A stretch of DNA of 64,000 nt, from the IMG/VR virus record IMGVR_UViG_3300009151_009564, positions 9,525 to 73,524 of that record, one strand, 5' to 3'. The stretch's first letter is position 1, and every line of letters starts with the position of its first letter. The notes below the pieces were generated by a model that saw nothing but the letters and a program-made list of their open reading frames with translations, was not told the origin of the DNA and searched no databases. Origin of the DNA: a virus. A program made the position numbers and the translations under genes. This document shows, piece by piece, positions 5,242-58,120 of this stretch.

Positions 5242-6846
5242 ATGGCAAGAAAGAAATCCAACTCGAATAAGAAACAACAACTCGGTCAGTTTATGACCCC
5301 TGATAACCTATCTAAAGACATTCTAGATAATATAACCTTCAGTAAAACAGATAAAGTATTAGAACCTTCATTTGGTGACGGTTCATTTCTAATAAAACTT
5401 ATACACAAGTTTATACCTTTATACAAAAGTGGGACTATTCAAGATAAGCTTGAGTGGATTTTAAGCTATAACATATGGGGATATGAGATAGATGAACTCA
5501 TGTTTGACGATTGTGTAGATAAGATCATTGAGGAGTGGGGTTATATACCTAAGTCTAACAACTTACATTGTCAAGACTTTCTAACATCTGAACTAAAAGT
5601 TGAGTTTGACTGGATAATTGGAAACCCACCATTCGGTGGTACAATAAGTCCAGAGTATGATAGAGATTTTGAAAGACTATATGGACGTAGGAATAATGAA
5701 AAGATTAAAAAGGAAACCTATTCATATTTTATTGTTAAATGTGTTGAGTTGTTATCAGAAGATGGTAAACTAGTCTTTATATGTTCAGACACATTCAAAA
5801 CCATTAAAACTATGGAAGGTTTAAGAAAATGGCTAATGACTATAGGATTTATAAATATCTACGATATTGGTTCTTTTTCCGAGGAAACAAAGTATTCCAT
5901 GTTAGCATTTGAGTTTATTAATAATAAAATCGAGTCACATATTATAGTAAACAACAATATAATACCTTATGATAGTATTTACTCAACTCCAAATACAAGT
6001 TGGTCTATTAACGAAGAGTTGTCGTCATTCTTTGGTGGTGAGTTATTAGGACATTATATAGTTTGTTCAGGTGGTTTAACAACCGGTAAAAATGAATACT
6101 TTATTAAGGACTTAGATACATCTACAATTCCATTTACTCTTATAGAGGAGTATAAATATACTTATTATGATGATATGATTACTTTACATAATGAGTTAAT
6201 GAGGGCTAAAAATAATATCCTTTCTAAGGAAAAGATAAGAGAGATAAAGAAGGCAGAAGAAAGAGGTGATACTATCATAGATGTTGATATACAGAAGGTG
6301 GAACCTAAGACTATACAACTACCACATCCAGATTATTGTTATTATAATGTTTCAAGTCCTGATATTTTATGGTGTAATCCAACTAAGGCTATTTACTGGG
6401 ATGATGATGGAACAGCAGTTAGAACATTTAAAAGAAATGGTAACTGGTATTTACAGGGTATGGGTGGTCAGAAGTTCTATAAGAAGGAAGGTATGACTTG
6501 GCAACTTATTGCTAATAAGATAAGACCTCGTTATATACCGGAAGGTTATATCATAGATAATGGATCTCCGATTGCTATTCTAAGAGAAGGTGTAGATGAT
6601 ATGGAGTTATATTTTATAATTGGATGGTGTCTTAGTAATAAGTGTAATGATATATTGAAAATGGTAATCAATCACACTAGAAATATTCAGAATAAGGATA
6701 TAGAAAAATTGCCCTACCCGACTTGGGTAGGACAATCAGATAAAATATTTATCAGTAAGTTTATCAAAGATAAAATCTCAGATAAGAAGAGAGGGGTTCA
6801 AATAGATGAAGATCAAGTCATAGGGGTTATAAACCGTATGTTTTAA
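5242..6846 (+). CDS. N6-adenine DNA methyltransferase (Eco57I/TaqI-like gamma class), orphan
   Basis: GQFMTP, motif I LEPSFGDGSF, motif IV IGNPPF; no nuclease domain recognised. Confidence 0.85.
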   Translation: MARKKSNSNKKQQLGQFMTPDNLSKDILDNITFSKTDKVLEPSFGDGSFLIKLIHKFIPLYKSGTIQDKLEWILSYNIWGYEIDELMFDDCVDKIIEEWGYIPKSNNLHCQDFLTSELKVEFDWIIGNPPFGGTISPEYDRDFERLYGRRNNEKIKKETYSYFIVKCVELLSEDGKLVFICSDTFKTIKTMEGLRKWLMTIGFINIYDIGSFSEETKYSMLAFEFINNKIESHIIVNNNIIPYDSIYSTPNTSWSINEELSSFFGGELLGHYIVCSGGLTTGKNEYFIKDLDTSTIPFTLIEEYKYTYYDDMITLHNELMRAKNNILSKEKIREIKKAEERGDTIIDVDIQKVEPKTIQLPHPDYCYYNVSSPDILWCNPTKAIYWDDDGTAVRTFKRNGNWYLQGMGGQKFYKKEGMTWQLIANKIRPRYIPEGYIIDNGSPIAILREGVDDMELYFIIGWCLSNKCNDILKMVINHTRNIQNKDIEKLPYPTWVGQSDKIFISKFIKDKISDKKRGVQIDEDQVIGVINRMF

Positions 6847-7580
6847 ACCCAAGTTTCTAATATAGAAGTCAGGTTCTTTTCTAAAATCGGAGCAAAATCT
6901 TCTACTGTTAGAGAATAAAGTGAACCAGTCTTATTTGCTGCCCATTCTACAACAGTCATGTTATTCCTTGACTTATCAAGCATAGCTTGTAATAAGCAAG
7001 TGATTAAAATTTTATCACGTTCAAATCCCTCAAAGTGATCGATTTTACGTTTTGTTTTATCAACTTTTTCTACACCGGTAGCTTCATCAAATACTTCTTT
7101 CAAGTGTAAATCACGAGCTTCCTGTGTTGATAGTTTTCTAAAAGTCCTTGAACTAAGCCATCTGTTGGAACCCTCTATTTTTAGAAAGATATCATACCAA
7201 TCATATGAAACACCTCCTTTTTTGATTACATTAACATCGGTTATCTTATAAGTTTTATCTTGTACAAGAGTTTTTGAGCTCTTGAACTTATAGACTACAT
7301 AATCACCTGCTTTAGGTAAGTTATCCTCGTCAATCCAACCATCTCTCCAATTTGGTCGGGTAAATCCAGCAACTTGCCAGTTGATTTCTGGTATTGGAGT
7401 ACCATCAGTTTGAGTAAAGTTATTTACACTAAATGAGGAATTTACTTCATCATTAATCTTGATGACTATATTTGGGTGAAAAAATTTATTACCACCAGGA
7501 TTTTGGTTTTGTAAAGACAAAACATCATATATAACACCCTTTACTATTTGTTTGGTAGCTCTTTTACAAAGTACTTTCAT
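6843..7580 (-). CDS. Hypothetical protein (internal RD motif RDLHLKEVF)
   Basis: 245 aa ORF overlapping the end of the upstream gene. Confidence 0.6.
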   Translation of the reverse strand: MKVLCKRATKQIVKGVIYDVLSLQNQNPGGNKFFHPNIVIKINDEVNSSFSVNNFTQTDGTPIPEINWQVAGFTRPNWRDGWIDEDNLPKAGDYVVYKFKSSKTLVQDKTYKITDVNVIKKGGVSYDWYDIFLKIEGSNRWLSSRTFRKLSTQEARDLHLKEVFDEATGVEKVDKTKRKIDHFEGFERDKILITCLLQAMLDKSRNNMTVVEWAANKTGSLYSLTVEDFAPILEKNLTSILETWV

Positions 7581-8094
7581 TTTGAATATTTAATATTTTT
7601 AGCAGTTCTTCTTCTGGAATATGTGTGTAACGTGATTTAAGAATGTTCTTAATCAGTTCAAAATTATCTTTATTAGCAAATATATTGAAAATATCTGACT
7701 CCACAATTTCATCAACGAGTTGGTCTTTTTCATAAAGACCGAGTTGCATCAACTTTACATCACGAATTTTCTGTTGATCAGTCATATCAAAGGTACAACC
7801 TTCGCAATCGGTGAGATATTTTTTATAACGAGTTATTTCACTTGCTGTAAGTGGTACTCTTATTTTCTGTGGGGAGGTTACTAAACCATCGACTATATCT
7901 TTTGCTTCTTTCAAACCCATTCCGGTTATATCTTTAATAACCTTAACTAGATTAAGCTTAGATGTACCAGTGGTATAGATAGTTATATCAACACTATATC
8001 GGTGTTCTGTTGAAGTAACAGTTTCCTGACCACCAGACATATGTGTCCATATAGCGATATTTGATCGATCTGTTATTATATGAACGTTACTCAT
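7564..8094 (-). CDS. Protein with ribosomal L7/L12 C-terminal-like domain
   Basis: KLNLVKVIKDITGMGLKEAKDIVD matches the L7/L12 CTD motif K..VIK.VR.ITGLGLKEAKDLVE. Confidence 0.75.
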   Translation of the reverse strand: MSNVHIITDRSNIAIWTHMSGGQETVTSTEHRYSVDITIYTTGTSKLNLVKVIKDITGMGLKEAKDIVDGLVTSPQKIRVPLTASEITRYKKYLTDCEGCTFDMTDQQKIRDVKLMQLGLYEKDQLVDEIVESDIFNIFANKDNFELIKNILKSRYTHIPEEELLKILNIQNESTL

Positions 8095-8098
8095 TTTA

Positions 8099-8129
8099 CA
8101 AATATAATAAAATTTATCTTGAAAACAAA
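8099..8129 (-). promoter_or_regulatory. Bacteroidota housekeeping-type promoter (-33 TTTG / -7 TAnnTTTG)
   Basis: Minus strand TTTG-N19-TATATTTG just upstream of the ATG at 8094. Confidence 0.65.
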
Positions 8130-8167
8130 AGGATATTAATACATATAAATTAAAAATATAAATTTAT

Positions 8168-8509: not shown

Positions 8510-9160
8510 TTACATCATCATGTTTTTATAACTTTCGGTTCTATTATAATCATGATAGTCCGGTGTACCCCTCTTCAAGAGAGCTTTATTGATATTGTTA
8601 AGCTGTATCGTTAAGCTCTCTTGTCGATGTTTATAAGAAGTATCAGCAGAACCATAGTTATGAATAGTATAACTTGCTTTTTTACTTTTTAAGACTTCAT
8701 CCATCTCACCGTAAAGTATTTCATCTATTTTAGAATCCGGTAAATCTGTTTCATCAAGTAAATCATTCTTCCTAAGATTAGACGGTCTTAGAGTTGAGAT
8801 TGTAAAGTTCATAGACTCATCCAACTTCCGTTCAAATAGAACAGAACATTTAAAAATAGTATAGATAGAGTTCCAGTGACGTATTCTCCACTTCTCATAC
8901 ATCTTAATGAGGTCAAGTTGAATAATATCCAATAGTTTATCCATACCTTCTGTATCAATTTTCTTGAGGTCAATAAGTCCGAAGTAATAAATGTCTTTAC
9001 CAAACTTATCTTCAATACGTTTAATATATTTATTAGAATAGTTAATCATGAACTTAATGGCTAAGTCCGCATCAAATACAGGTACACCCATTTCTTCGAA
9101 CATATCGGAGACTTCATTATAACCAGAATAGTAGTTTCCTGTTAAACCAACTTTAAGCAT
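8510..9160 (-). CDS. Dephospho-CoA kinase (CoaE)-like protein with degenerate P-loop
   Basis: MLKVGLTGN...GVPVFDAD...FG...IHN pattern; start moved to ATG 9160 because a TATTTTTG promoter element occupies 9175-9182. Confidence 0.7.
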   Translation of the reverse strand: MLKVGLTGNYYSGYNEVSDMFEEMGVPVFDADLAIKFMINYSNKYIKRIEDKFGKDIYYFGLIDLKKIDTEGMDKLLDIIQLDLIKMYEKWRIRHWNSIYTIFKCSVLFERKLDESMNFTISTLRPSNLRKNDLLDETDLPDSKIDEILYGEMDEVLKSKKASYTIHNYGSADTSYKHRQESLTIQLNNINKALLKRGTPDYHDYNRTESYKNMMM

Positions 9161-16244: not shown

Positions 16245-16811
16245 TTAGAGAATTTCATCCACCACTCCGAGCTCGAGTGCTTCTTCAGCTGGCATGAACC
16301 AATCAACTTTACCATCATAGATTTCTTTCAATTTCTTTCTGGTGATTTTAGTCTTTTCGATTGTCATGTTTTCAATCTGTTTCTGAAGACGTTTAGACTC
16401 TTCCAATCTTTCTTCCATTTGCTTAACAGTACCAATCACTCCACCTGATACCTGATGGTATAGTGGGGTTGAATACTTGTGAGCAAATCTTCTGTGTCCA
16501 TGAATAAGGATCATAAATCCACAACTCATAGCTGCTCCGGTTACTATAGTGTGTATTGGAGTTTTTGATTTCTCCATAACAGACAATAGACCAAAACACT
16601 GATAAACAAGTCCGCCATAGGAGTCAATATAAATATTGATTGGCTTTGGTTTATAGTTTAAACCATAAACATCGTAAAGCTTTTTAAGATGCTCGTCATC
16701 CTCATTTATTTCGAGGATGTTCTTAGTTAAATCTCCCATAGATGCTTGATCTACTTGTTTGTTTAGATAAAGATTTCTTTCCTTTGGTAAGGGTAAATTT
16801 CCTGTTGCCAT
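16245..16811 (-). CDS. clpP: ClpP-like serine protease
   Basis: IYIDSYGG, GAAMSCG (catalytic Ser), YHQ (His), DWFMPAEEALELGVVDEIL. Confidence 0.85.
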   Translation of the reverse strand: MATGNLPLPKERNLYLNKQVDQASMGDLTKNILEINEDDEHLKKLYDVYGLNYKPKPINIYIDSYGGLVYQCFGLLSVMEKSKTPIHTIVTGAAMSCGFMILIHGHRRFAHKYSTPLYHQVSGGVIGTVKQMEERLEESKRLQKQIENMTIEKTKITRKKLKEIYDGKVDWFMPAEEALELGVVDEIL

Positions 16812-17844: not shown

Positions 17845-18405
17845 TTAGCCGGTTGGTGGTTTATAATCTGGTTTTATTTTTGTTAAAATATGTATTATAT
17901 CGTATATATCTTTAGTCTGTTTTTTGGGTGTTCCAGATCTTAAAGATGATATTCTTGCTTTTGTTTCAATGATTTCAAATGGGTGGTGAAATAGAAATCC
18001 ATCCTTTTCAATCACTATACTGTTATTCAGTGGAAAGAAATCAACATTATATCCTAATTTATAATTAGGATAATAACCAAGTAACTCAATCTCTCCTTCC
18101 ATTCCCGGATATCGGTTATGATATAGCTTTACATCTGGTTTTTCTTTAACCAAGAAGTCAATATCTTCTGGTAGTCTATCTAATAGTCCAAAAGCATAAA
18201 GAGCTGCTGAGCCGGTTAATACAGCCTTTCCTTTCCATTGCTTAATAATACTCCAGTGTTTATGATTCTGTATTATATTTTTTTTTCTTAATCTTTTAAG
18301 ATCTGGTGTAAATTCTGGGGATTCTCCTAATACCATTGATAATTTTATATCTCTAATATCGGATTCTAAATCTTTTAGTTGTGGGGGTAAGGTTATATTA
18401 ATCAT
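17845..18405 (-). CDS. Nucleotidyltransferase-like protein
   Basis: LTGSAAL..G...DIDF, VDFF, KD.YD pattern; N-terminal RDIKLSMVL motif. Confidence 0.6.
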   Translation of the reverse strand: MINITLPPQLKDLESDIRDIKLSMVLGESPEFTPDLKRLRKKNIIQNHKHWSIIKQWKGKAVLTGSAALYAFGLLDRLPEDIDFLVKEKPDVKLYHNRYPGMEGEIELLGYYPNYKLGYNVDFFPLNNSIVIEKDGFLFHHPFEIIETKARISSLRSGTPKKQTKDIYDIIHILTKIKPDYKPPTG

Positions 18406-18629
18406 AAAATTTTGCTTATCTGGTTATCTCTGTGTTCGTCTAAAAATATGAAATTTTCTCTAAATGTTGAAGGGGTCATTATTATACCATTTATATTAGC
18501 CATAATAACTTCATCACATAAAAACTCTAAACTATCTAGTCTAAAGTGATACTTCTCTCCCTTTAGGAAAGAATGTGTTTTACCAATCGTTTCAATCAAA
18601 AAATCTTCTATACATAATACTCGTTTCAT
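18402..18629 (-). CDS. Small protein ending in RD motif
   Basis: Ends HRDNQISKIL. Confidence 0.65.
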   Translation of the reverse strand: MKRVLCIEDFLIETIGKTHSFLKGEKYHFRLDSLEFLCDEVIMANINGIIMTPSTFRENFIFLDEHRDNQISKIL

Positions 18630-30068: not shown

Positions 30069-30363
30069 TATTGATTTGATTTATTTTATAATCTCTTATA
30101 TTGTCTTTGCCTATTATAAGTTTATCTTCATGGTATTCTTTACCATCTTTGGTGGTATAATACCAACCTTCTGGCTTAATATCATGGTGTGTAAATGTCA
30201 TAGTTTCTCCTTCCATATCCATATCAGGTATATCGTCAAAATTATAAGTAAAACTTACATTATAAGTAGCAACCCCATAAGAATCTTGAATAGTATTTTC
30301 CTCTCCTGTTTCTTTTATTATGATTTTATCACCCGTAGATCCGTGATTTCTATTTAAGTTCAT
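30058..30363 (-). CDS. Small protein ending in RD motif
   Basis: IRDYKINQINNGL. Confidence 0.6.
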   Translation of the reverse strand: MNLNRNHGSTGDKIIIKETGEENTIQDSYGVATYNVSFTYNFDDIPDMDMEGETMTFTHHDIKPEGWYYTTKDGKEYHEDKLIIGKDNIRDYKINQINNGL

Positions 30364-30684: not shown

Positions 30685-30883
30685 CTAAAATAAAATTTAT
30701 TAAACTATCTCTTGAATCGATTAAATCAAGTAAATGATTCACTGGTTCTAGAAAAGTTTGTTTTGTTTCAGTATCTTGTATGATATAGTGTGAAGGAGTA
30801 ACCTGTTCAACTACTTTGAACTTTTTACCACTTATATGAGTATGTACTACCCAATCACCTATATTAAAAGATTTAGTTTTCAT
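30662..30883 (-). CDS. Small SH3/KOW-like protein with RD motif
   Basis: FNIGDWVVH; RDSLINFIL. Confidence 0.55.
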   Translation of the reverse strand: MKTKSFNIGDWVVHTHISGKKFKVVEQVTPSHYIIQDTETKQTFLEPVNHLLDLIDSRDSLINFILDEKKIDY

Positions 30884-31118
30884 CTATAATAGTATTTATC
30901 TTTTCGTCACGCCTACGCTTGATACAATAATCTTTAAGATTCTCACTATATTGCCAATCTACATCTATATCAGGATAAATTCTTATTATTTCTATCTCTT
31001 TTTCTCTGAGTTTAGCAGCTTCTTTATACCTCTGACTTTTAACTGATTCACGTTTTTTCAACTTTAGAAAAAGATAGTACTCAATAGTTTCTAAAGGTAT
31101 TTTATCCAAATTATTCAC
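30873..31118 (-). CDS. UVR-motif mini-protein with RD motif
   Basis: KRESVKSQRYKEAAKLREKE; RDEKINTII. Confidence 0.7.
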   Translation of the reverse strand: MNNLDKIPLETIEYYLFLKLKKRESVKSQRYKEAAKLREKEIEIIRIYPDIDVDWQYSENLKDYCIKRRRDEKINTIIDEN

Positions 31119-31449
31119 TTATAATAGTATTTATTTGACGTTCCCGAATAGTTTCTAATAGATCTTTCATTTCATGAAGTCTTAAATTAATTGGTAGTCC
31201 ATTTTTCTCATAGATCATTTTTTCTTTATCACGTAACTCTGCAGCTTTTTGAAACTGCATTTCTTTAACACATTTATTCTTTTCCAAATAAATATCACGA
31301 ATTTCCTGTAAAGTAGTAATAGGTACTTTACACAACATATCTAGTATGTCTTCTTCATTCATCTTAGAAGAATCTTCTAAAAGATTTGGTGGAGAAATAG
31401 TGAGTGAATATGTAAGACCTGAGATATTTATAGTTGTTGTTTTACTCAT
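31111..31449 (-). CDS. UVR-motif mini-protein with RD motif
   Basis: KNKCVKEMQFQKAAELRDKEK; RERQINTII. Confidence 0.7.
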   Translation of the reverse strand: MSKTTTINISGLTYSLTISPPNLLEDSSKMNEEDILDMLCKVPITTLQEIRDIYLEKNKCVKEMQFQKAAELRDKEKMIYEKNGLPINLRLHEMKDLLETIRERQINTIISE

Positions 31450-31501: not shown

Positions 31502-33481
31502 TTATTGAAAAAGTGTTTCTAATCTTAAATCTCTACCTTCAGTAGTTACATATTCATTGATAGTAGTGAATACTTCTTTGTTAATATTCAATATTCTATC
31601 AAATAACTCCTGATTTAAAATAGCGTGATGTACTACAAATATATTAATATTATAATCATTAGCAAAAGATTTTAACAAATTAAGTATATCTTCACATCCC
31701 TCAATATCTATGGAAGAAAAAATCTCATCCAAGAAGAGTATATTAATATGTTTCTTTGTCCTTATTAATTTTAGGTATGCAATGAGTATAGATATGTTTA
31801 TTTTCTTTGTTTCTCCGCAACTTAATGTATCATGATCCACTATATTTCCAAAGTTCTTAATCTGAGCCGTAAATGTTTCATCCAATTCCACTTGAAATGG
31901 TAACCTCATTTTCTTAATATTCTCACTAATAAAGAAGTTAATAGGTTTAATAATACCAGATATAATACTACGTTTAACACCATCTTCTCCAAAGACTTTA
32001 GTTAACTCTTTATAATAAACTTCTTTTTCCTTACAAACAGTTGAATAATCAATACTAATAGACTTCTTTTCACTTAGTTCTTTAATGGTATCTTCAAACT
32101 CAGACATATCAACTGACTTACCCGATTCTCTATCTTTTTGAGTTTGTAACTTCTCAAGTTGGGATTTATAACTCTTTAATAAGTAAGTAATATCATTAAA
32201 AGCTTTATTAGTCTTATCAGACATTTCTTGAAGCTTTGCTTGTTTCTCTCTAATAGATTTAATAGTAGTCTCTATTTCGGTTCTAATACCTTCTAATGAC
32301 TTCTTTTTTTCCAATAAGACATCTTTTAGATTATGAAAGTGATCGTTGTCAAAATCAGTGCCACAAGTAGGACATTTACCAGAATCATAAAGATCAATAT
32401 CTTTTTGAGCAGACTTAATCTCACCATTTATAGTAATAAACTGTTCTCTTTCCTTATCCATTTCAGATTTAAGTTCAGATTCCTTTTGTTTTATCTTTTC
32501 AACTCTTTCCTTCAAAGCTTGATATTCATCTTTCTTAGACTCCATATCCGTCTTAATTTGATCGATCTCGGATTGGATATTTAACTTTTCTTTTTCAAGA
32601 GCTTTTTCGATAGACCTTCTTATAGATTCAATAGAGTCATCTAATGTAGATATTTCTGAATCGTATTTAGTCATTTGTATCTTATTAGCTTTAGCTAAGT
32701 CTTTTAGTATCTGGTTTAAGATATTAATAACTTCAAGATTAAATAACTTATCTAATAACAGTTGTTTCTCCTCATTAGATAAGCTAATAAAGTTTTTGAA
32801 GTCATTAATAGACATAGATATAAAAGATTTGAAGGTTTCAATATCCATTCCAATATAGTTTTCAATCTTTTCATCTATATTAGCTTTACCCGCCCTATCA
32901 TTTTCAATTCCGTTTTCGATTAACTTGAGTGTACTTGGATTAATACCACGCACAACTTCCACCTCACTTCCATTGGATTTGAATTTGATTTTATTTTGTA
33001 ACTCGTTATTAATACGATTAGGTAGAGTAGATAGAGTAGCCCACTTTTTCTTCTTCATTGACTTTACGCGCCCGTAAAGTACATACTCAAAACTTTCAAT
33101 AAAAGATGAGTTATGACTTACTATACCATTAGAATAATATTCTTCTCCATCCACTTCTATATCCCATAGATCCTCTATGTTCGGGTCATGATTTATAGAA
33201 TTTAATTTTTGATATCCATCTTTTGTTAAAATTTTGTCACCTATATTTAAATCTTCCAAAAAAGTCCAACTATTGTTTCTAATTACTCTATGTGTTGGTG
33301 ATCCAGTTATTTCAAATTTTTCTGTTTTAATATTTATCTTACATGAATTCGGAGATGTTATTCCGATATTTTTAATCGACTTATATCCATTTTTTGTATC
33401 TACTTCAACATTATATTTTTTTAAAATACTAAATTTAGATTGTAAGTTATTTAACTCATTAAGTGATATTTTCAATTTCAT
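31502..33481 (-). CDS. sbcC: C-terminal split intein (aa 1-124) fused to C-extein of SbcC/gp46 (Rad50-like) ATPase
   Basis: Intein block B SPTH, block F LWDIEV, terminal SHN|S; extein has coiled coil, CPTC hook, LSCGE signature, ILFLDE Walker B, VVHH. Confidence 0.9.
   Translation of the reverse strand: MKLKISLNELNNLQSKFSILKKYNVEVDTKNGYKSIKNIGITSPNSCKINIKTEKFEITGSPTHRVIRNNSWTFLEDLNIGDKILTKDGYQKLNSINHDPNIEDLWDIEVDGEEYYSNGIVSHNSSFIESFEYVLYGRVKSMKKKKWATLSTLPNRINNELQNKIKFKSNGSEVEVVRGINPSTLKLIENGIENDRAGKANIDEKIENYIGMDIETFKSFISMSINDFKNFISLSNEEKQLLLDKLFNLEVINILNQILKDLAKANKIQMTKYDSEISTLDDSIESIRRSIEKALEKEKLNIQSEIDQIKTDMESKKDEYQALKERVEKIKQKESELKSEMDKEREQFITINGEIKSAQKDIDLYDSGKCPTCGTDFDNDHFHNLKDVLLEKKKSLEGIRTEIETTIKSIREKQAKLQEMSDKTNKAFNDITYLLKSYKSQLEKLQTQKDRESGKSVDMSEFEDTIKELSEKKSISIDYSTVCKEKEVYYKELTKVFGEDGVKRSIISGIIKPINFFISENIKKMRLPFQVELDETFTAQIKNFGNIVDHDTLSCGETKKINISILIAYLKLIRTKKHINILFLDEIFSSIDIEGCEDILNLLKSFANDYNINIFVVHHAILNQELFDRILNINKEVFTTINEYVTTEGRDLRLETLFQ
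33110..33481 (-). mobile_element. IntC half of split intein (124 aa)
   Basis: Ends GIVSHN followed by Ser+1. Confidence 0.85.
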
Positions 33482-35280: not shown

Positions 35281-35819
35281 TTATCATCATTATTTTCATT
35301 GTTTAGAAGTTCTTCTAAATTAGATTCTCTGGATAGTTTAGTAGATATACATATTTCATCAATCTCATTAAGAAAAGCTTCCCTATGTGACTCTTGTTTA
35401 ATAGAATTTAAAAAAGGACTAAGTCTATCAAACATTTTATCGTCATTATATGATAGTGGATGTTTAACTGGAGTGTTTCCAAGTGTGAACATTCCACTTG
35501 AGTTATATCGATTTATTCTAAATCCTTTTTTATGGATTATAATATCTATTGTATCATTGCCTATGTGTCCAGTAATGGTCATCCTTTCCGATGAAGTAGA
35601 TGTGGTAAACTTATCGGTTGCTTTACCAGCTCTAATAGCAAACTTATAGAAGTTCTCAGATATTTCTTCATCATAATAACTCATAGGATCTTCATATGTA
35701 GTAGGGTTAGAGACTGTCAGGTATTTATTACTGGTGGTATAGGGTGAGGTATTTTCTGTACTTTTATTGTACTCACTGATTGTTTCTTCGATTATTTTCT
35801 TTAATTTACTTTTTTTCAT
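35274..35819 (-). CDS. Hypothetical protein with RE-variant motif
   Basis: RESNLEELL near C-terminus. Confidence 0.55.
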   Translation of the reverse strand: MKKSKLKKIIEETISEYNKSTENTSPYTTSNKYLTVSNPTTYEDPMSYYDEEISENFYKFAIRAGKATDKFTTSTSSERMTITGHIGNDTIDIIIHKKGFRINRYNSSGMFTLGNTPVKHPLSYNDDKMFDRLSPFLNSIKQESHREAFLNEIDEICISTKLSRESNLEELLNNENNDDKC

Positions 35820-38237: not shown

Positions 38238-38696
38238 ATGAGCGGTATTATAAAACACGAAATGGGTCTTAAATTTATCTTTGGTGGTAAGTCATTTGTT
38301 ACGTTTCTTAATACCAACACTTCAAACCGTTTCACATATAAAGTTGTTAAACACAAGACTGACGACATTTACTTTATCAATGTTTTAACAAGTCCAGATA
38401 CATATACCTTTTTTGGTACATATAGGAACGGACAGTTTAAACACTCCCCTAAAGCTAGAATAAGTGCGGAAGCTCAGTCGGTTAAAGTATTTCAGTTTGT
38501 TATTGCTAAGTTAGCAACAAACACATTAAGTAACTTGATTGAAATCTACCACGATGGTCGTTGTGGTAAATGTGGTAAACAACTGACTGTACCGGAATCA
38601 GTAGAAACCGGGTTCGGACCAGAATGTTACAAACGTATTGCTTCTAAACAAGATATTCGTGACTCAAAACTCACACAACTATTAAAAGGAATGTAA
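38238..38696 (+). CDS. DUF6011-like zinc-finger protein with terminal RD motif
   Basis: GRCGKCGKQLTVPESVETGFGPEC; RDSKLTQLL; start 38238 lies after TATCTTTG at 38211-38218. Confidence 0.7.
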   Translation: MSGIIKHEMGLKFIFGGKSFVTFLNTNTSNRFTYKVVKHKTDDIYFINVLTSPDTYTFFGTYRNGQFKHSPKARISAEAQSVKVFQFVIAKLATNTLSNLIEIYHDGRCGKCGKQLTVPESVETGFGPECYKRIASKQDIRDSKLTQLLKGM

Positions 38697-43527: not shown

Positions 43528-43893
43528 ATGATGAAAGATGGAATTTTTATTGAACCAAGCGATGGGATTAACCTTTATGTTAATGGTAAGTCTCATCATT
43601 ATGACTCTTTCTATCAATCTGGTAGGGATAAGTCATGTTTCCTCATTCCAAAAACTCATTTGGAATCATTTGAGACAGATCTAAAAATCGGAAACGTTAT
43701 TGTTTTTAGGAACTCTAAAAAAGAGTGGATAATGGTGGAAGGTAAACAACAGTCTATTCATGAGAATATTTGGAGAAATGAGGATCATTTTGAATATGTT
43801 GTTTGGGGAGATTTTACTACATTGGATGAAGTTGCGTTACGAGACTTGAAGTTGTCATTCCTTTTGGATGATAAGTATCAATACTTCTTCTAA
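43528..43893 (+). CDS. Hypothetical protein with terminal RD motif
   Basis: RDLKLSFLL; TTTG-N19-TAATTTTG promoter at 43493-43523. Confidence 0.6.
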   Translation: MMKDGIFIEPSDGINLYVNGKSHHYDSFYQSGRDKSCFLIPKTHLESFETDLKIGNVIVFRNSKKEWIMVEGKQQSIHENIWRNEDHFEYVVWGDFTTLDEVALRDLKLSFLLDDKYQYFF

Positions 43894-46855: not shown

Positions 46856-47165
46856 GTATGAAATTTGCCTTCATTATATGAAGTACCTTTCTAGGTATAA
46901 TAAAAGCTGGACATTTCGTTCATTGGTTGACTCCATCATAAAAAGTGAGATGAGCAACGAAGATCTTGTTGGTATCTTACACATGCAATGGTTAGAAACG
47001 GTTGAGATGTATGAAAGAGGTTCAATAGAAAGTGTTAATTATACATTAACAGGTATTATGTCTCCGGAAGAGTATTTATCTAAAGTATTACAGAGTGTAA
47101 GAGATAATAAAATAACCGAAATATTAAATGAGAATGAGAGGACAGATACCGGAGAGTTGGGATAG
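46848..47165 (+). CDS. Hypothetical protein, RD motif
   Basis: RDNKITEIL. Confidence 0.6.
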   Translation: MNKYEICLHYMKYLSRYNKSWTFRSLVDSIIKSEMSNEDLVGILHMQWLETVEMYERGSIESVNYTLTGIMSPEEYLSKVLQSVRDNKITEILNENERTDTGELG

Positions 47166-47439
47166 ATATGAGGTTATAAGGTTTATAGAAGAAAGGATTA
47201 TTATAGAAAGGTTTAGAACAATAAAACCTCATTATATAAGAGTAACTTCTGTTGAGGAAACAGATGATTTTGGTAAGCATTCTATCTATGTTAGATATCA
47301 GGTAAAACTTACTACAAAAAGGTTTGAGTTACCTAAACCAGATGAATATATTATGTTTGATTTTAACTTAATCGAAAGTCATATGAAAACATATATGAGA
47401 GATGAAAAACTAAAAAAGATATTTGATGATGATGTTTGA
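47128..47439 (+). CDS. Hypothetical protein, RD motif
   Basis: RDEKLKKIF. Confidence 0.6.
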   Translation: MRMRGQIPESWDRYEVIRFIEERIIIERFRTIKPHYIRVTSVEETDDFGKHSIYVRYQVKLTTKRFELPKPDEYIMFDFNLIESHMKTYMRDEKLKKIFDDDV

Positions 47440-47725
47440 TCCACAAAAATATAGTTTTATGAGGGCTCCCGCAGTTTCTCTTGATTTCATTCTATATGAA
47501 ACTAAACCGGTGGAAGGATATATTATTGGGTGTTATACTTTAATTGATTACATGGATGGTGACTTTCTCTTAGAAGAAGTAACTAAAAAGTCTATGAAAG
47601 ACTATGCAATAGTACTTTATCGAGGTAAAATACCAAGTGATGAATTTGCGTTTGAGTTGTTTAAAAACATTGGATTAGAAGTTCCAATAATACAAAGGGA
47701 TCTTAAATTAGATACATTACTATGA
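47423..47725 (+). CDS. Hypothetical protein, RD motif
   Basis: Ends RDLKLDTLL. Confidence 0.6.
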   Translation: MMMMFDPQKYSFMRAPAVSLDFILYETKPVEGYIIGCYTLIDYMDGDFLLEEVTKKSMKDYAIVLYRGKIPSDEFAFELFKNIGLEVPIIQRDLKLDTLL

Positions 47726-48081
47726 ATAAGCAAGAAGCAAGAGAAAGAAAGAAATATCTTAAAGATAATCCAAAATATCCAATTATTTTAGAAGCTTTAA
47801 TCGCATGGCATAAATGGGACTTTGAAACCTCAAGGGAAGAAACCCTGCGAACAAAACAACAAGTTTGGAACTCACATTTCTGGGACTATGGTGAGTTTGT
47901 AGAGTATATTGGTGTAAATAAAAATGGACTTATATGGTATAGAGAAACACAACCAGGAACTAAACCTGATGATGAAAATCATATCATAGGTGTATCTACT
48001 TGGTATGATGATTATAAACCATTTCATGATAAATGGATGTTACAATTAGATAGGGATAAAAAATTAAATACAGTACTATGA
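47722..48081 (+). CDS. Hypothetical protein, RD motif
   Basis: Ends RDKKLNTVL. Confidence 0.6.
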   Translation: MNKQEARERKKYLKDNPKYPIILEALIAWHKWDFETSREETLRTKQQVWNSHFWDYGEFVEYIGVNKNGLIWYRETQPGTKPDDENHIIGVSTWYDDYKPFHDKWMLQLDRDKKLNTVL

Positions 48082-49005: not shown

Positions 49006-49320
49006 ATGGAAGGGATAAAGAATTGGGAAATAATTGGATTATATAAAAAGTATATTTTTTCCAAAAATTCAGGTGGTAAATTGGGTGGGATCCCTTTAGT
49101 TAAGTTTCACGGGATTTGGAAGGGAACTGAAGAAGAGTTTGTTAATAAACATAAGAAAGAGTTCCCTAACTCTCGTATTGAGATCTTTAAACATACTAGG
49201 AAACCAATGTCATCTAATTTTAGATTTGTAGTTGAACACTTTATGTCGAAGAATTCAGAGTTTAAGATATTTAATCGAGATGAAATTATTAATGAGTTAT
49301 TAGATGAACGAGTTGATTGA
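49006..49320 (+). CDS. Hypothetical protein, RD motif
   Basis: RDEIINELL. Confidence 0.55.
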   Translation: MEGIKNWEIIGLYKKYIFSKNSGGKLGGIPLVKFHGIWKGTEEEFVNKHKKEFPNSRIEIFKHTRKPMSSNFRFVVEHFMSKNSEFKIFNRDEIINELLDERVD

Positions 49321-49651
49321 AATAGAAAAAAAATATTGTAGAGAAATTGTTGAATTTTTCTGTAAAGAAATTCCAAAGTTGTTAATACCTTCTTCAAATG
49401 ACTTAAATCAGTTAAAATCTTATATACATAGTAGGCTTTGTTCGCAGTTTCAATCTAGGTTATATGGTACTCAACTAGTAAAAGAATTTCGGGTAGAAGT
49501 AAATCTATTGGATAAAGACAAAAGAAGGGATTCTGTTATTGATAATATCCTAGATGATTCCAAAATATTAGAACCTAATATAATAGTTGTTTTGAAATAT
49601 AATGATTTTACATTTGAAACATTAGAACAAAGAATCGATTTTTTAATATAA
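49304..49651 (+). CDS. Hypothetical protein, internal RD motif
   Basis: RDSVIDNIL. Confidence 0.55.
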   Translation: MNELIEIEKKYCREIVEFFCKEIPKLLIPSSNDLNQLKSYIHSRLCSQFQSRLYGTQLVKEFRVEVNLLDKDKRRDSVIDNILDDSKILEPNIIVVLKYNDFTFETLEQRIDFLI

Positions 49652-51998: not shown

Positions 51999-52165
51999 TG
52001 AATAGATATTGTAAGAAATGTGATTCATTGGTACAACCGGACTCAAAAATAGGTTCTGGTACATTACCAGATTGGTATAAGTGTCCGAAGTGTGGTAGAG
52101 TACATTCAGCGACCACTATGAATAAACAAAAACATAGAGATAAAATTTTAAAAAAGATATTATGA
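51998..52165 (+). CDS. 55-aa zinc-ribbon protein ending in RD motif (not in ORF track)
   Basis: YCKKC..KCPKC..HRDKILKKIL; coupled at both ends (TAATG, ATGA). Confidence 0.65.
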   Translation: MNRYCKKCDSLVQPDSKIGSGTLPDWYKCPKCGRVHSATTMNKQKHRDKILKKIL

Positions 52166-52608: not shown

Positions 52609-53167
52609 TTTTATTAGAGGTAAGTCGAATACAGGTAAAAGTATGGCGGTTATTTCGTTGGTTAAAAACCTTCGTAATATAACAATATACTTTGACCTTG
52701 ATTTAGGTAATCCGTCTAAATTTAAATCTCTAAAGGGTAGTAATGTGACGGTTATTACTATGCAGAACCCAACATATACTACATTGTTAAAAACTATAGT
52801 TTCTCTTAATGAGAACTGTTTTGAAATGTATAATTTTGTGTTTGATTCTACGGATAGGTTGGATGGTAGTTTTACTGAGTTCTTAGAAGTTTTACCTAAA
52901 AACCATCGATATTTCTTCGTTACAAACAATATATCAGTTAAACCGGATAATGCTTATAACTGGGAACAAAGTGAGATTATGTCTTATCATGATTTTTATA
53001 TTATTCCTCCTAATAGTGTATCTGTTTTTGATATGATTAGAAAAGAGGATGGTGATATTCATATGTATAATCTGAATACAAAGGAATCTTATAATATTGG
53101 TGATATATCACAGGCTATAAGAAACATGAAAATAAATGAAGTGTTGTCAAATGAAACCGAAACTTAA
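52589..53167 (+). CDS. P-loop-containing protein with RN-variant terminal motif
   Basis: GKSNTGKS, IYFDLD, FVFDS; RNMKINEVL. Confidence 0.55.
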   Translation: MKIKQYNFIRGKSNTGKSMAVISLVKNLRNITIYFDLDLGNPSKFKSLKGSNVTVITMQNPTYTTLLKTIVSLNENCFEMYNFVFDSTDRLDGSFTEFLEVLPKNHRYFFVTNNISVKPDNAYNWEQSEIMSYHDFYIIPPNSVSVFDMIRKEDGDIHMYNLNTKESYNIGDISQAIRNMKINEVLSNETET

Positions 53168-53423
53168 ATATCTTGATGAGTTATATCTAAAAGAAGCCAA
53201 ATCCTCTAAAAGAATTGGTTATTGGTGGTATTATGATAGTGATTATTATAATGACTATTTTGATAGGTTTGAGCACTATGATTGTTCTGATGCTTATTAC
53301 TGGTATTATGATTGGTTGGAAGACCCGACTAGGTGGCGGGATGAGAAAATATCGGAAATTTTAGGAGAGAAAACCAAGCCTACATTGGGTGATATTTTTC
53401 CAGAAAGTTTGACTATCAAATAA
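53136..53423 (+). CDS. Tyr/Asp/Trp-rich small protein with RD motif
   Basis: YWWYYDSDYYNDYF..; RDEKISEIL; true start probably ATG 53151. Confidence 0.55.
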   Translation: MKCCQMKPKLKYLDELYLKEAKSSKRIGYWWYYDSDYYNDYFDRFEHYDCSDAYYWYYDWLEDPTRWRDEKISEILGEKTKPTLGDIFPESLTIK

Positions 53424-53812: not shown

Positions 53813-53824
53813 CAAATCTTTTTT

Positions 53825-55151: not shown

Positions 55152-55676
55152 ATGTGGTATATAACTTGGTGTGAGCCTTATGTAAATTACAGTAAAATAC
55201 AAGGTGGTGGATATTATGTAAATTGGAAGTCAAAAACAGAAGATGAGTTTACTGATAACTGGATAACTGCAAAGAAGTATAAAACCTTCAATTCTGCTGT
55301 TACTCGATTGGGTCTTCGTATTACTCAACATATAGATTCTGTTGATAAATTTATCGAACATAATATATCTTATGATGATAAGCAGGCTAAGCGAGATTTT
55401 CGTTTATCTAAACTATTAGGTGATACTCAAGATTTAAGAAACTTCCTATTGACCAAAGGTCGTATTGATAAAATAGATGAGAAAGGGAACTTTATGGGTG
55501 ACGCAACCGATGAAATAATCGATTGGGTTATGTCTAGTATTAAAGGTAATATAAAACGCAAAGAGGATCTCAAAAAGAAACAGGATAAACTTCTATTGGA
55601 AAGTGGATTTAAAAATGAAACAGTAGATGTTACTACTCAAAAATATGCGGATGACTTTTTAGACTTTTTTAAATAA
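55152..55676 (+). CDS. Hypothetical protein, internal RD motif
   Basis: RDFRLSKLL. Confidence 0.6.
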   Translation: MWYITWCEPYVNYSKIQGGGYYVNWKSKTEDEFTDNWITAKKYKTFNSAVTRLGLRITQHIDSVDKFIEHNISYDDKQAKRDFRLSKLLGDTQDLRNFLLTKGRIDKIDEKGNFMGDATDEIIDWVMSSIKGNIKRKEDLKKKQDKLLLESGFKNETVDVTTQKYADDFLDFFK

Positions 55677-55685
55677 AACCATAAA

Positions 55686-56057
55686 ATGAAGAAAGATACA
55701 AATTATAAATACCACCAAAAAGAATGGGACAAAAATAACGGAAATGTCTCCGCTACCGCTAGATCTATTCGTAGATCTCAGAAAATCAAGTTTGATAAGT
55801 TGAGATTATCCATATCTGATAAGATATGGTTTGATTCACTTAGTATGGACGAAAAAGAATCGGTTCATTCAAATTGGTATTTTACTTATCCAAACTTTAC
55901 TGATCGAACAAAATGGTCTTTTGTTACCTGGTCATCTGGTCATGATAATGCTCCACTAGAAGGGGAAAAAATTGAACAATATTGTAAAAGAATGACTCCG
56001 GGTTGTAAGAATACTCAAAGAGATTTAAAACTAAATAAGTTATTAAGTCTAAAATAG
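55686..56057 (+). CDS. Hypothetical protein, RD motif
   Basis: RDLKLNKLL. Confidence 0.6.
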   Translation: MKKDTNYKYHQKEWDKNNGNVSATARSIRRSQKIKFDKLRLSISDKIWFDSLSMDEKESVHSNWYFTYPNFTDRTKWSFVTWSSGHDNAPLEGEKIEQYCKRMTPGCKNTQRDLKLNKLLSLK

Positions 56058-56064: not shown

Positions 56065-56391
56065 ATGTCTAATTTTCTTGAAGATAATTATATTGAACCA
56101 TTAATATCAAAGGGGTATATTGAGGTACTTAGTATAAATCTACCGGATGGTACTTATTATAAGACCGGTGGTGGTTATGAGTTTCATATACATGAAAAAA
56201 CAGGTAATAATTCTTATGATTTTACTTCCTATACTATAGTTACTAATGATGGTATAAGAGGATCATGGAATCATGAAAGAGATATGGTTATTATAAATGA
56301 TGGTCTGCCATTAGATGAAAATGTTTATAAAATAATGACTTGTGCTTTATCTGATATAAGAGATGAAAAAATTAATAAGATTATTTTATGA
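56065..56391 (+). CDS. Hypothetical protein, RD motif
   Basis: Ends RDEKINKIIL. Confidence 0.6.
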   Translation: MSNFLEDNYIEPLISKGYIEVLSINLPDGTYYKTGGGYEFHIHEKTGNNSYDFTSYTIVTNDGIRGSWNHERDMVIINDGLPLDENVYKIMTCALSDIRDEKINKIIL

Positions 56392-57158
56392 TTTTTATTT
56401 CCAAAGAAAACAATGGATACTTTAATAAGGGAGAACATTATGAGGTAGTTCCATCCCCAAATCAGTGGAATGATAACTGGTTAAAGGTTTTAGATGGAAA
56501 TGGAAAGGAAATTATTGATATACAAAAAAAATTACTTGATTTCTATTTCATACCTATTGATGAATATAGAGACGAACAAATAAATAAAATTTTAGATATG
56601 TATAAAGGAAATATTATAATGTTGGGTAAACCAGCATGTGGTAAAGGAACCCTCGCAAAATCTCTTATAGATAAGTACAACTATTCACTTATCTCGACCG
56701 GTGACATCCTTCGTGATGAAAAGAAATCCGGTTCCGAAATCGGTAAGAAAATAAATCACTTAATAGGTAAGGGAAACCTTGTACCAGATGAGTTGATTTT
56801 TGAAATCATCGAGAATAAGTTAAAAACTATTGATGGTCAAGTCATCATAGATGGTACTCCAAGAACTATACCACAGGGTGAGTTTTTAGATAAAGTAGTT
56901 GATGTTAAATTAGTTTTGTTTATTGATGTTTCTGATGAAACTACTAAAGAACGAATTAAACAACGTGGTAAAACATCTGGTCGTGACGACGACCAAAGTC
57001 CTGAAATTGTTGAACGTAGGTTAAAACAGTATAAGGATGAGACTGAACCATTGGTTGACTTCTATAAAAAGAAGGGTATTCTATCTTATATTGACGGTGA
57101 AAAGTCGAAGGAAGAAGTCTTAAAACAAGTCGAGAATATACTAAAACTCTGGAAATAA
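56388..57158 (+). CDS. adk: Adenylate kinase (short LID) with a 70-aa N-terminal RD-motif module
   Basis: LGKPACGKGT, ISTGDILR, GNLVPD, IDGTPRT, GRDDD; kinase domain starts at Met 56598. Confidence 0.88.
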   Translation: MIFISKENNGYFNKGEHYEVVPSPNQWNDNWLKVLDGNGKEIIDIQKKLLDFYFIPIDEYRDEQINKILDMYKGNIIMLGKPACGKGTLAKSLIDKYNYSLISTGDILRDEKKSGSEIGKKINHLIGKGNLVPDELIFEIIENKLKTIDGQVIIDGTPRTIPQGEFLDKVVDVKLVLFIDVSDETTKERIKQRGKTSGRDDDQSPEIVERRLKQYKDETEPLVDFYKKKGILSYIDGEKSKEEVLKQVENILKLWK

Positions 57159-57169
57159 TCCAGAGTTTT

Positions 57170-57201
57170 TTTGTTATTTATCAATAAATTTCGTATCTTT
57201 G
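57170..57201 (+). promoter_or_regulatory. Bacteroidota-type promoter preceded by a terminator hairpin (about 57144-57170)
   Basis: TTTG-N20-TATCTTTG; AAACTCTGGA..TCCAGAGTTT upstream. Confidence 0.7.
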
Positions 57202-57215
57202 ATTAAATTAATCAT

Positions 57216-57851
57216 ATGGTACGATTTGAATCATTTCATTATATATATCCACCTCGTCCAAAAAATGCTGTTCCTGTTGGAGAGCTTGACTTTTGGGATG
57301 ATGGTTCTATGATTGCTCAGCCTAAACTTAATGGGTCTAATGCTGTTATTTTCATGAACGGTAAGGATGTTTATGTTTATAATCGTCATAATCAAAGACT
57401 TACTAACTTCAATCTTTCTAAAGAAGAACTACTTCGATTATACAGTGGTTCTGGTTGGATGGTTATAAATGGTGAGTATCTTAACAAGAGTAAGAAGGAT
57501 GAAACCGGTGAAACTTTTAATCATAAGTTGATTATTTTTGATATACTGGTTCATAACTCAAACTATCTCTTGGGTTCTTCTTTCCAAGAAAGGGTCAATC
57601 TTTTGGATTCTTTGTATGGAAAAAACGACTCCGATAAGTCTTACTTATATTCTGTTGGTGAAAATGTTTATCGTGTTAAATCGTTTGAAAAGGGGTTTAA
57701 AGAAGCTTTCGACACTTTGACCAAAATAGATATGATTGAAGGGTTTGTTATGAAACGTAGAAATGGTAAACTTGAGATTGGTAATACGGAAAATAACAAC
57801 AGTAACTCACAAATTAAATTTCGTAAAGCAACCCGCAATTATAAATACTAA
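57216..57851 (+). CDS. ATP-dependent ligase-like adenylation domain, no OB domain
   Basis: AQPKLNG (motif I), NRH, INGE, IFDIL, EGFVMK, KFR. Confidence 0.75.
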   Translation: MVRFESFHYIYPPRPKNAVPVGELDFWDDGSMIAQPKLNGSNAVIFMNGKDVYVYNRHNQRLTNFNLSKEELLRLYSGSGWMVINGEYLNKSKKDETGETFNHKLIIFDILVHNSNYLLGSSFQERVNLLDSLYGKNDSDKSYLYSVGENVYRVKSFEKGFKEAFDTLTKIDMIEGFVMKRRNGKLEIGNTENNNSNSQIKFRKATRNYKY

Positions 57852-58120
57852 TGACTACTAGACATACACAAGGAGCAGACGATGTGGTTTGCTCCTTACT
57901 AGTTAATGATAAAGATGTAAATGGATGTATTCGTCATGAACGTGACGTTATGATTTCATTTGGAGTTGAAGTTTCCCCAACTGATTTTGCTGGGAGAGAA
58001 GTTATTTTCCATGACTTCTTTTTGACTTCCGGTCAGGCTTATCGTCTTTTGGGACAATTAGAAGTGATTTTGGGTAAGGAAGAAATAAGGGATCAAAAAA
58101 TAAATGATTTACTTACTTAG
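57851..58120 (+). CDS. Hypothetical protein, RD motif
   Basis: Ends RDQKINDLLT. Confidence 0.6.
   Translation: MTTRHTQGADDVVCSLLVNDKDVNGCIRHERDVMISFGVEVSPTDFAGREVIFHDFFLTSGQAYRLLGQLEVILGKEEIRDQKINDLLT

Follow-up and report, generated by a model that had tools for sequence, protein, structure and literature searches.

Why should about 28 mostly unrelated proteins of a single virus carry nearly the same nine residues, usually at their C-terminus? This question is raised by a 64,000-nucleotide (64 kb) stretch of the IMG/VR virus record IMGVR_UViG_3300009151_009564 (positions 9,525 to 73,524; the whole stretch is hereafter the window), in which a first-pass annotation had noticed the element R-D-x-K-[IL]-x-x-[IL]-L, which we call the tag. 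Overall, the tag is a real, clade-specific and modular motif that is constrained at the peptide level and conserved in orthologs, and the clade that carries it also encodes Clp machinery. From sequence we infer both the binding and the receptor in the reading that we favor, with a probability of roughly 0.6, namely that the tag would be a docking helix, added as a module, by which many accessory proteins are directed to a single receptor.

We searched the window's mechanically called open reading frames (ORFs; longest non-overlapping, at least 40 amino acids (aa), n = 93) with the pattern R-[DE]-x-x-[IL]-x-x-[ILV]-[ILF], hereafter the earlier pattern, scoring a match as C-terminal when it lies within 20 residues of the end. 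There are 25 matches in 25 of the 93 ORFs, 18 of them C-terminal, relative to a mean of 0.83 matches (maximum 6) and 0.10 C-terminal matches (maximum 2) in 1000 per-protein residue shuffles, so the tag exceeds the shuffle level in both frequency and C-terminal bias. The strict pattern RD.K[IL]..[IL]L matches seven times in the window versus 0.009 times in shuffles. Reversed window proteins contain one match to the earlier pattern, the six frames of the window combined contain 29, and the first 50 kb of Campylobacter phage PC14, a natural AT-rich control with 25% GC, contains none in 77 ORFs. A position matrix was then trained on 61 distinct C-terminal 9-mers taken only from two relatives, the G001 and G005 genomes. 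This matrix recovers all 28 ORFs that had been listed originally, 27 of them at 9.4 bits or more and ORF 7564-8094 marginally at 7.2 bits, and all 28 bear R-[DE]-x-[KQ]-[IL]-x-x-[ILV]-[ILF], again marginally for that ORF. Thus, the initial estimate of about 28 tagged proteins is borne out. A cut-off of 10 bits is reached by 27 of the 93 window ORFs versus 0.86 per shuffled proteome, a set made up of 26 listed ORFs plus ORF 8510-9187, whose 9-mer has no Arg and is taken as a false positive.

Within the tag, Arg and Asp/Glu have position frequencies of 1.00 each and Lys one of 0.60, followed by I/L, I/L/V and L/I/F. As first described, the tag is mostly C-terminal, with 20 of the 28 copies located 0-19 residues from the end and eight internal, several of the latter at apparent domain junctions. 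Exact ends account for 5 of the 20 C-terminal tags in the window, and variable polar tails of 1-19 residues are common. Nothing common was found upstream of the 9-mer, and downstream there are one to few polar residues of which the composition alone is conserved. Tag Arg residues are encoded by AGA, AGG, CGT, CGA and CGG, and tag Leu residues by TTA, CTA, CTT, CTC and TTG. This variation between copies indicates that conservation is at the level of the peptide and not that of a DNA repeat, in agreement with the first-pass annotation. Separately, the window contains a tRNA-Arg gene (anticodon TCT, reading AGA, the commonest tag Arg codon) and a tRNA-Cys gene, at 50415-50488 and 53741-53813, in that order.

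The individual tags are as follows, with scores from the relatives-trained matrix; the ORF that had been listed as 38238 is ORF 38205-38696 here, with an earlier start.

18405..18431, minus strand: exact C-terminus of ORF 18402-18629 (75 aa), 18.6 bits, 0 residues to the end
30070..30096, minus strand: ORF 30058-30363 (101 aa), last position Asn, 17.4 bits, 3 residues to the C-terminus
30686..30712, minus strand: ORF 30662-30883 (73 aa), 11.7 bits, 7 to the C-terminus; kept in 1/1 ortholog
30885..30911, minus strand: UVR-motif ORF 30873-31118 (81 aa), 19.4 bits, 3 to the C-terminus
31120..31146, minus strand: UVR-motif ORF 31111-31449 (112 aa), 15.2 bits, 2 to the C-terminus
31508..31534, minus strand: SbcC/Rad50-like Walker-B ORF 31502-33481 (659 aa), 12.0 bits, 1 to the C-terminus
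35304..35330, minus strand: ORF 35274-35819 (181 aa), 13.8 bits, 9 to the C-terminus
38658..38684, plus strand: zinc-ribbon (DUF6011) ORF 38205-38696 (163 aa), 19.5 bits, 3 to the C-terminus
43840..43866, plus strand: ORF 43528-43893 (121 aa), 12.6 bits, 8 to the C-terminus; kept in 2/2 orthologs
47100..47126, plus strand: ORF 46848-47165 (105 aa), 20.3 bits, 12 to the C-terminus
47398..47424, plus strand: ORF 47128-47439 (103 aa), 20.8 bits, 4 to the C-terminus
47696..47722, plus strand: exact C-terminus of ORF 47423-47725 (100 aa), 17.5 bits, 0 to the end
48052..48078, plus strand: exact C-terminus of ORF 47722-48081 (119 aa), 17.5 bits, 0 to the end
49276..49302, plus strand: ORF 49006-49320 (104 aa), 18.7 bits, 5 to the C-terminus; kept in 4/4 orthologs
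52136..52162, plus strand: exact C-terminus of ORF 51998-52165 (55 aa), 19.1 bits, 0 to the end
53120..53146, plus strand: ORF 52589-53167 (192 aa), Asn at position 2, 11.7 bits, 6 to the C-terminus
53337..53363, plus strand: ORF 53136-53423 (95 aa), 20.2 bits, 19 to the C-terminus
56019..56045, plus strand: ORF 55686-56057 (123 aa), 22.1 bits, 3 to the C-terminus
56359..56385, plus strand: ORF 56065-56391 (108 aa), 22.6 bits, 1 to the C-terminus
58088..58114, plus strand: ORF 57851-58120 (89 aa), 21.3 bits, 1 to the C-terminus
56568..56594, plus strand: internal, adenylate-kinase ORF 56388-57158, residues 61-69, 21.4 bits
39174..39200, plus strand: internal, ORF 38946-39425, 15.9 bits; kept in 9/12 orthologs
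49526..49552, plus strand: internal, ORF 49304-49651, 15.9 bits, 32 residues from the end
55392..55418, plus strand: internal, ORF 55152-55676, residues 81-89, 15.8 bits
18328..18354, minus strand: N-proximal tag-like 9-mer, nucleotidyltransferase-like ORF 17845-18405, 12.0 bits
19031..19057, minus strand: internal, ORF 18662-19237, residues 61-69, 10.1 bits
7089..7115, minus strand: internal and weaker, ORF 6843-7580, 9.4 bits; 1/1 ortholog tagged at the aligned place
7738..7764, minus strand: tag-like 9-mer, L7/L12-like ORF 7564-8094, 7.2 bits

Among the internal copies, the tag of the adenylate-kinase ORF closes a 60-residue N-terminal extension, with the ADK domain beginning at residue 78, and that of ORF 38946-39425 is located between a soluble N-terminal part and the hydrophobic segment in which this ORF ends. 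The 9-mer of ORF 17845-18405 is doubtful as a tag, the hydrophobic last position being kept in none of seven orthologs. ORF 7564-8094, which scores in the range of shuffled proteins, is probably not a real member.

The tag is also found across the related phages. Specifically, 65 related loci with 1751 ORFs contain 129 matches, 101 of them C-terminal, relative to 14.4 and 1.55 in shuffles, and 20 of the 65 loci have no match by the strict pattern. With the earlier pattern, G001 (483 kb, 98% complete) has 45 matches, 33 of them C-terminal (5.7 and 0.6 in shuffles), G005 has 42 and 29 (4.1 and 0.3), and G006 (344 kb), which is the genome of one of the loci without a strict match, has 44 and 28 (4.9 and 0.6). 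When a -G-[ILV] ending is also admitted, the pattern reveals 90 C-terminal tags in the 508 ORFs of G006 versus 2.3 expected from shuffles. This genome is rich in a second form of the tag, R-[DE]-x-[KR]-L-x-E-[LI]-G-I, which accounts for 54 of the 90 tags and almost always forms the last residues; exact-end tags in G006 (50 of 90) are mostly of this -L-G-I form, which elsewhere occurs in six copies in G001 (five at the exact end) and five in G005 (all five at the exact end). Tagged proteins make up 38% of the 60-150 aa ORFs in the record that holds the window, 35% in G006, 19% in G005 and 14% in G001. Tagged genes also occur in arrays, as seen by 38 adjacent tagged pairs in G006 versus 15.8 expected. 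The stop codons that follow G006 tags are TGA in 46 cases, TAA in 35 and TAG in 9, and the genes downstream of tagged G006 genes share no common N-terminal partner motif. Note that in a more distant huge phage (locus L156, LR756508.1 435058-476956) three small ORFs among the 70 sampled end in [ED]-D-S, which may be a different terminal motif or chance.

The proteins that carry the tag are indeed unrelated, as the first-pass annotation had stated. BLASTP links only the pair 30873/31111 among the window carriers, and the carrier types are as described: UVR proteins (30873 and 31111), an SbcC Walker B protein (31502), adenylate kinase (56388) and a DUF6011 zinc ribbon (38205). The 90 carriers in G006 fall into 80 BLASTP clusters, and there are still 80 after removal of the tag and three profile iterations. 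No homology outside the tag thus joins these clusters, and a single diverged paralogous family was rejected. Few carriers have a known family: Pfam assigns none to 84 of 86 scanned G006 carriers (the scan excluded the other 4 of the 90, which cross piece boundaries) or to 40 of the 45 G001 carriers, and PHROGs has no match for 24 of 25 window carriers. A hydrophobic 19-mer is present in 7% of tagged versus 10.7% of untagged ORFs of 60-200 aa, a difference that is not significant; that 93% of these tagged ORFs have no hydrophobic segment indicates that carriers are mostly of a soluble type.

We next compared orthologs; a lack of tag conservation in those of related phages had been named beforehand as refuting. 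Reciprocal best hits across four genomes gave 522 pairs, of which 37 are tagged on both sides, 11 on one side and 474 on neither; orthologs thus keep the tag in 37 of 48 pairs, and about six of the 11 one-sided pairs are near-variants that barely miss the pattern. The five key positions are conserved above the rest of the protein in five of the seven families with aligned tags (38205, 38946, 49006, 43528 and 30662), the remaining two being small or doubtful cases. Judged from these alignments, the tag is evidently under selection. It also appears to be gained and lost as a module, based on three patterns. For example, 20 of 23 orthologs in the 38205 family carry the tag and the other three end directly after the zinc ribbon. 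SbcC is tagged in this genome and in none of six orthologs, so the SbcC tag is, from this distribution, a lineage-specific gain. Finally, the tag of adenylate kinase sits on an extra N-terminal piece that the one homolog found does not have.

Several features agree with the earlier suggestion that the tag is helical. The hydrophobic positions i, i+3 and i+4 fall on one helix face. An AlphaFold2 (AF2) model of the 38205 protein, built on an alignment of 20 sequences with a mean predicted local distance difference test (pLDDT) score of 86.8, puts the tag inside a terminal helix at residues 148-162 with a pLDDT of ~75, relative to >90 in the core. This model has no Foldseek match in the PDB at E <=0.001 and matches only unnamed viral clusters, below 0.9, in the ESM Atlas. 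Gly, Asn and Pro are scarce in the 12 residues that precede tags, and Asp, Asn, Glu and Lys are enriched in the tails that follow.

Does the tag belong to a known class of targeting peptide? A close likeness is to ssrA/SspB and other C-terminal degrons of AAA+ proteases, where a short movable C-terminal peptide sends unrelated proteins to one machine, and the clade does encode its own ClpC-like unfoldase and ClpP. In contrast to ssrA, the tag is encoded in each gene and not added by tmRNA, often has 1-19 variable residues behind it and is sometimes internal; to our knowledge, its Arg-acid-x-basic start combined with helical spacing matches no degron. In MecA/McsB-type ClpC systems the N-domain binds adaptors or phospho-arginine. 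The phage unfoldase shares the UVR-type middle domain and the [LIV]-G-F loop, which in ClpC docks ClpP, but has no room for an N-domain, and the McsB kinase is absent from all five near-complete relatives that we probed for receptors. Encapsulin cargo peptides and the T4 capsid-targeting sequence are likewise terminal labels of about 10 residues on unrelated cargo read by one shell or scaffold; however, tag carriers are not beside capsid genes and include cytoplasmic enzymes, and the T4 sequence is N-terminal and cleaved by the prohead protease whereas 20 of the 28 tags here are C-terminal and one, a doubtful case, is N-proximal. The large, fast-evolving sets of poxvirus ankyrin-repeat proteins, with variable bodies and a constant C-terminal PRANC/F-box-like docking domain, present a similar picture, except that the constant element here is 9-10 residues and not a folded domain, and that the host is bacterial. 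PIP-box and bacterial or T4 clamp-binding motifs are also short, terminal and hydrophobic at i, i+3 and i+4, but the tag has neither the Gln nor the aromatic pair of Q-x-x-[LIM]-x-x-[FY]-[FY] and Q-L-x-L-F, its carriers are mostly not replication proteins, and the clamp family PF00712 is found in none of the five relatives. Dockerins of cellulosomes also provide many proteins with a C-terminal module that docks on a scaffold, yet these are folded extracellular domains of ~70 residues, and no repeated receptor module was found here. Lastly, the -L-G-I form fits a class II PDZ ligand (hydrophobic-x-hydrophobic at a free C-terminus), with no PDZ reader detected in five phage genomes. The tag seems to behave as a terminal address tag that fails the defining features of every known family tested, and no published description of the motif was found in the literature searched, as the first-pass annotation had anticipated. 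As far as that literature shows, it would be a previously undescribed address tag.

The docking reading can be put as follows. The tag would be a short helix, R-[DE]-x-[KRQ]-[IL]-x-x-[IL]-[LI], with a few polar residues behind it or, in its second form, ending in ...L-G-I, that is appended as a module to many unrelated proteins, for the most part small ORFans of a soluble type that lack a known function. The invariant Arg, the acidic residue and the three hydrophobic residues on one face would bind a groove on a single receptor, and the variable carrier bodies would each do something different. The first-pass annotation had pictured an address label for one hub; with the hub itself putative, this picture fits the modularity, the ortholog conservation and the ~80 families. 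With the tag on 14-38% of the 60-150 aa ORFs of four genomes, it offers a handle on the small ORFans of huge phages. It also defines a functional class, predicts one receptor that might be captured with a synthetic peptide, and offers a portable experimental tag.

A label on so many proteins suggests that the receptor is a machine with many clients. On this ground the leading candidate is a ClpC-like two-ring AAA+ protein of ~705 aa, based on its presence across the clade and on a conserved tagged gene directly upstream of it. It is encoded by all five near-complete relatives and by 5 of 10 further records (G006, G009, G013, G014 and G015), and its family (named ClpC by JGI) includes at least 120 closely related proteins, 697-725 aa in length and encoded on contigs that reach 634 kb; the record fragment that holds the window has neither an unfoldase nor Hsp70. 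The conserved D1 start at about residue 43 and the Walker A motif at about residue 90 leave no room for an N-domain, and no Clp_N family is present among the 25 listed of the 29 families matching the protein. A UVR-type middle domain matches at residues 298-332, and D2 contains a G-V-G-F stretch, invariant in 25 sequences, which we take to be the ClpP-docking loop of ClpC. In G001, G005 and G006 the gene order is conserved, with a ~200-aa unknown protein followed by a 120-140-aa tagged protein and then the unfoldase, at the following positions.

G001 314287-317453: unfoldase gene cluster
G005 284169-287292: unfoldase gene cluster
G006 92550-95922: unfoldase gene cluster

The tag Arg is invariant across the family of the 120-140-aa protein, whose profile gives a weak PDB match to 8qkh_S of the Staphylococcus phage 812 neck entry (E 0.0035, domain E 0.05), which is a lead only. 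A CYTH-like gene, as read from its N-terminus, is present further upstream of the cluster in G005 and G006. ClpP-family genes are found in four of the five near-complete relatives, with none matched in G005, and the window has one.

16245..16811, minus strand: short ClpP-family protease, ~188 aa, with a Ser-His-Asp triad and an insertion and without the N-terminal axial region

This ClpP has a 70% identical ortholog in tag-rich G006 (15462-16028), only paralogs of at most 36% identity in G001 and none in G005; it is a possible proteolytic partner of the clade's ClpC-like unfoldase.

If the tag is a docking handle, we tentatively take its receptor to be the ClpC-like unfoldase of the phage itself, either alone or together with ClpP, at somewhat below even odds. 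In that case the tag would serve as a delivery signal private to the phage, with carriers that are either substrates degraded on a schedule or adaptors through which host targets reach the protease. A host protein is a realistic receptor that still falls short of probable, and another phage protein or a scaffold is rather unlikely. The earlier proposal of a Clp adaptor or degron has only circumstantial support, consisting of the phage ClpC-like unfoldase and ClpP and the conserved tagged gene directly upstream.

Other receptors were tried and rejected. Hsp70 occurs in four of the five relatives and is missing in G004, the locus of which (L023) is still tagged. J-domain proteins occur in all five, and G006, a tag-rich genome, lacks an ortholog of the short J-protein, which in the window is a 237-aa protein (29352-30068) beside a cluster of tagged genes. 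Note that this short J-domain protein is 591 aa in G001 (238548-240323) owing to a ~350-residue insertion between two conserved parts. GroEL, the beta clamp (PF00712) and the McsB arginine kinase (PF00217) were each found in 0/5 relatives, the last with a match in the Bacillus subtilis control; a gp45 family search matched nothing anywhere, controls included, and carries no information. PDZ_2 and PDZ_6 are present in none of five phage genomes (G001-G003, G005 and G006), and a tmRNA-encoded tag was dismissed as ARAGORN detects no tmRNA in the window, G001 or G006.

A number of observations weigh against the docking helix or its assignment to ClpC. The region before the tag is helical-looking and not a flexible linker, so part of the tag may pack against the domain that bears it. 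Lineages differ about tenfold in tag density, with 1.6-3% of ORFs tagged in the tag-poor fragments G011 and G012 (8 of 247 and 3 of 183 ORFs) and 18% in G006, and mechanical calling means that some ORFs are possibly not genes. The ClpC link is one of co-occurrence and synteny alone. LR756508.1 has a ClpC-like gene of 51% identity, yet the 70 ORFs around it are free of C-terminal tags, and G005 has 29 to 48 C-terminal tags without a ClpP match, indicating that phage ClpP is not required. The eight internal window tags are a misfit for a degron read from a free end, and SbcC and adenylate kinase are odd candidates for degradation.

There are other explanations of the same motif. One is that the tag loads capsids or virions by binding the procapsid interior or scaffold, with the small proteins packaged and injected with the DNA. 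This would suit a tag at or near the C-terminus, almost always at the exact end in the -L-G-I form as in encapsulin cargo peptides, and small, varied ORFan carriers, as expected of anti-defence proteins that are injected. We nevertheless consider it improbable. The 80-140 kb region of G001, which has a gp23-type capsid gene at ~139 kb and a weak terminase match at ~118 kb, holds just 1 of 45 tags in 67 ORFs; the neighbors of the window carriers are replication and nucleotide-metabolism genes; and the carriers include part of SbcC, adenylate kinase and a protein anchored by a hydrophobic C-terminus. Furthermore, 18% of G006 ORFs seems too many for cargo, and T4-type heads use N-terminal signals for internal proteins. 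A similarly low probability is given to the absence of any common receptor, in which case an intrinsic helix cap, a self-association helix or a weak membrane or nucleic-acid contact would have been repeatedly favored. The helical-looking, Gly- and Pro-poor residues before the tag, the AF2 model in which the tag ends a longer helix and the fact that just three hydrophobic positions are fixed are all in line with this. However, an invariant Arg followed by Asp/Glu over ~80 unrelated families is hard to explain by stability alone, three 38205 orthologs do without the tag, the unrelated AT-rich phage has none, and the 93% of tagged 60-200 aa ORFs that have no hydrophobic segment also speak against it.

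A further alternative is that a phage protease, such as the M16-family peptidase at 13010-14182 or the ClpP-like enzyme, recognizes or cleaves the tag. The eight internal window tags would then be processing sites, several of which fall where domains seem to meet, as ahead of the adenylate-kinase domain, and the window does encode both an M16-type peptidase and a ClpP-family protease; this is quite improbable nonetheless, given that most tags have 0-5 residues after them, so that cutting removes almost nothing, and that downstream only a polar composition is conserved. It is very improbable that the tag acts as a nascent peptide within the ribosome, slowing release and favoring re-initiation at the next overlapping start, perhaps with involvement of a phage release factor. 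Although 28 of the 59 G006 cases with a close downstream gene have a 4-base or 8-base overlap with the next start, and the window has a release-factor-like gene, the distance from tag to stop ranges from 0 to 19 residues, eight tags are internal, the stop codons vary, the tagged genes 43528 and 57851 precede convergent genes, and untagged orthologs occur in the same gene context. Finally, the tag could be the by-product of an element in DNA or RNA, or of gene ends being AT-rich, which would account for the commonest tag codons being AT-rich and located just upstream of the next gene. This idea is close to refuted by the use of five Arg and five Leu codons. The 25 observed matches versus 0.8 in shuffles, one in reversed proteins and none in the 77 ORFs of the 25% GC phage also speak against it.

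The docking helix thus remains the reading that we favor, and one extension of it, which we regard as unlikely, is a private targeting system in which up to a third of the small accessory proteins would be modular adaptors. In such a system a fast-evolving body would grip a host or phage target while the 9-10-residue helix plugs into the N-domain-less ClpC-like unfoldase with ClpP. This would be the bacterial-virus counterpart of viral F-box/PRANC adaptors, or an orthogonal degron that times the removal of early proteins. We know of no earlier phage-private degron or adaptor system, so a receptor that turned out to be the phage Clp machine would give the first example; very large phages would then organize part of their proteome by an addressing code. 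Were the receptor instead encoded by the host, it would mark a weak point at the center of Bacteroidota cell biology that these phages exploit.

As to the genome that holds these tags, the window has ~30% GC, and CheckV gives 13% completeness for its 73.5 kb virus record, indicating that the window is a fragment of a ~0.5 Mb genome. Pfam analysis reveals a huge-phage gene set that includes a T4-type UvsX/RecA-like recombinase, SbcC pieces, GreA, S1 and L7/L12-like proteins, a release-factor-like gene, a ClpP-family protease, a J-domain protein, adenylate kinase, ligases, homing endonucleases and a CHU_C (type IX secretion) domain. Relatives of the recombinase, at 49-92% identity, are present on 65 viral contigs of up to 483 kb, and the uncultured 642 kb phage of GenBank LR756502.1 has a copy that shares 79% identity with it. 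No near-identical DNA was found for the window in the phage collection. According to Al-Shayeb et al. 2020 (PMC7162821), the largest genomes, one of 642 kb included, form a 'Mahaphage' clade with predicted hosts in the Bacteroidetes, and we infer that LR756502.1 is the 642 kb genome of that paper. The window phage is probably of this Mahaphage type, with a genome of ~0.5 Mb and a Bacteroidota host.

Several other genes in the window deserve mention. The SbcC/Rad50-like gene (31502-35280, minus strand) consists of three consecutive ORFs, with the following Pfam assignments.

34987-35280, minus strand: SbcC/Rad50 Walker A piece
33459-35018, minus strand: SbcC/Rad50 middle ORF, 519 aa, no family
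31502-33481, minus strand: SbcC/Rad50 Walker B piece

The release-factor-like gene (16850-17548, minus strand) is of class I, with a PCRF domain and a GGQ motif, and is split by one in-frame TGA at 17375-17377, the halves on either side being in the same frame. This TGA could be regulated read-through, local recoding or a sign of a pseudogene; the rest of the window fits the standard code. A 2236-aa ORF at 22652-29362 has no Pfam family and a Thr-rich C-terminus. Lastly, two GIY-YIG/NUMOD3 homing-endonuclease-like genes and two DUF7487 (TnsA-like endonuclease) genes are located amid the core genes of the window.

19441-20160 and 63179-64000: GIY-YIG/NUMOD3 genes
36185-37309 and 59792-60796: DUF7487 genes

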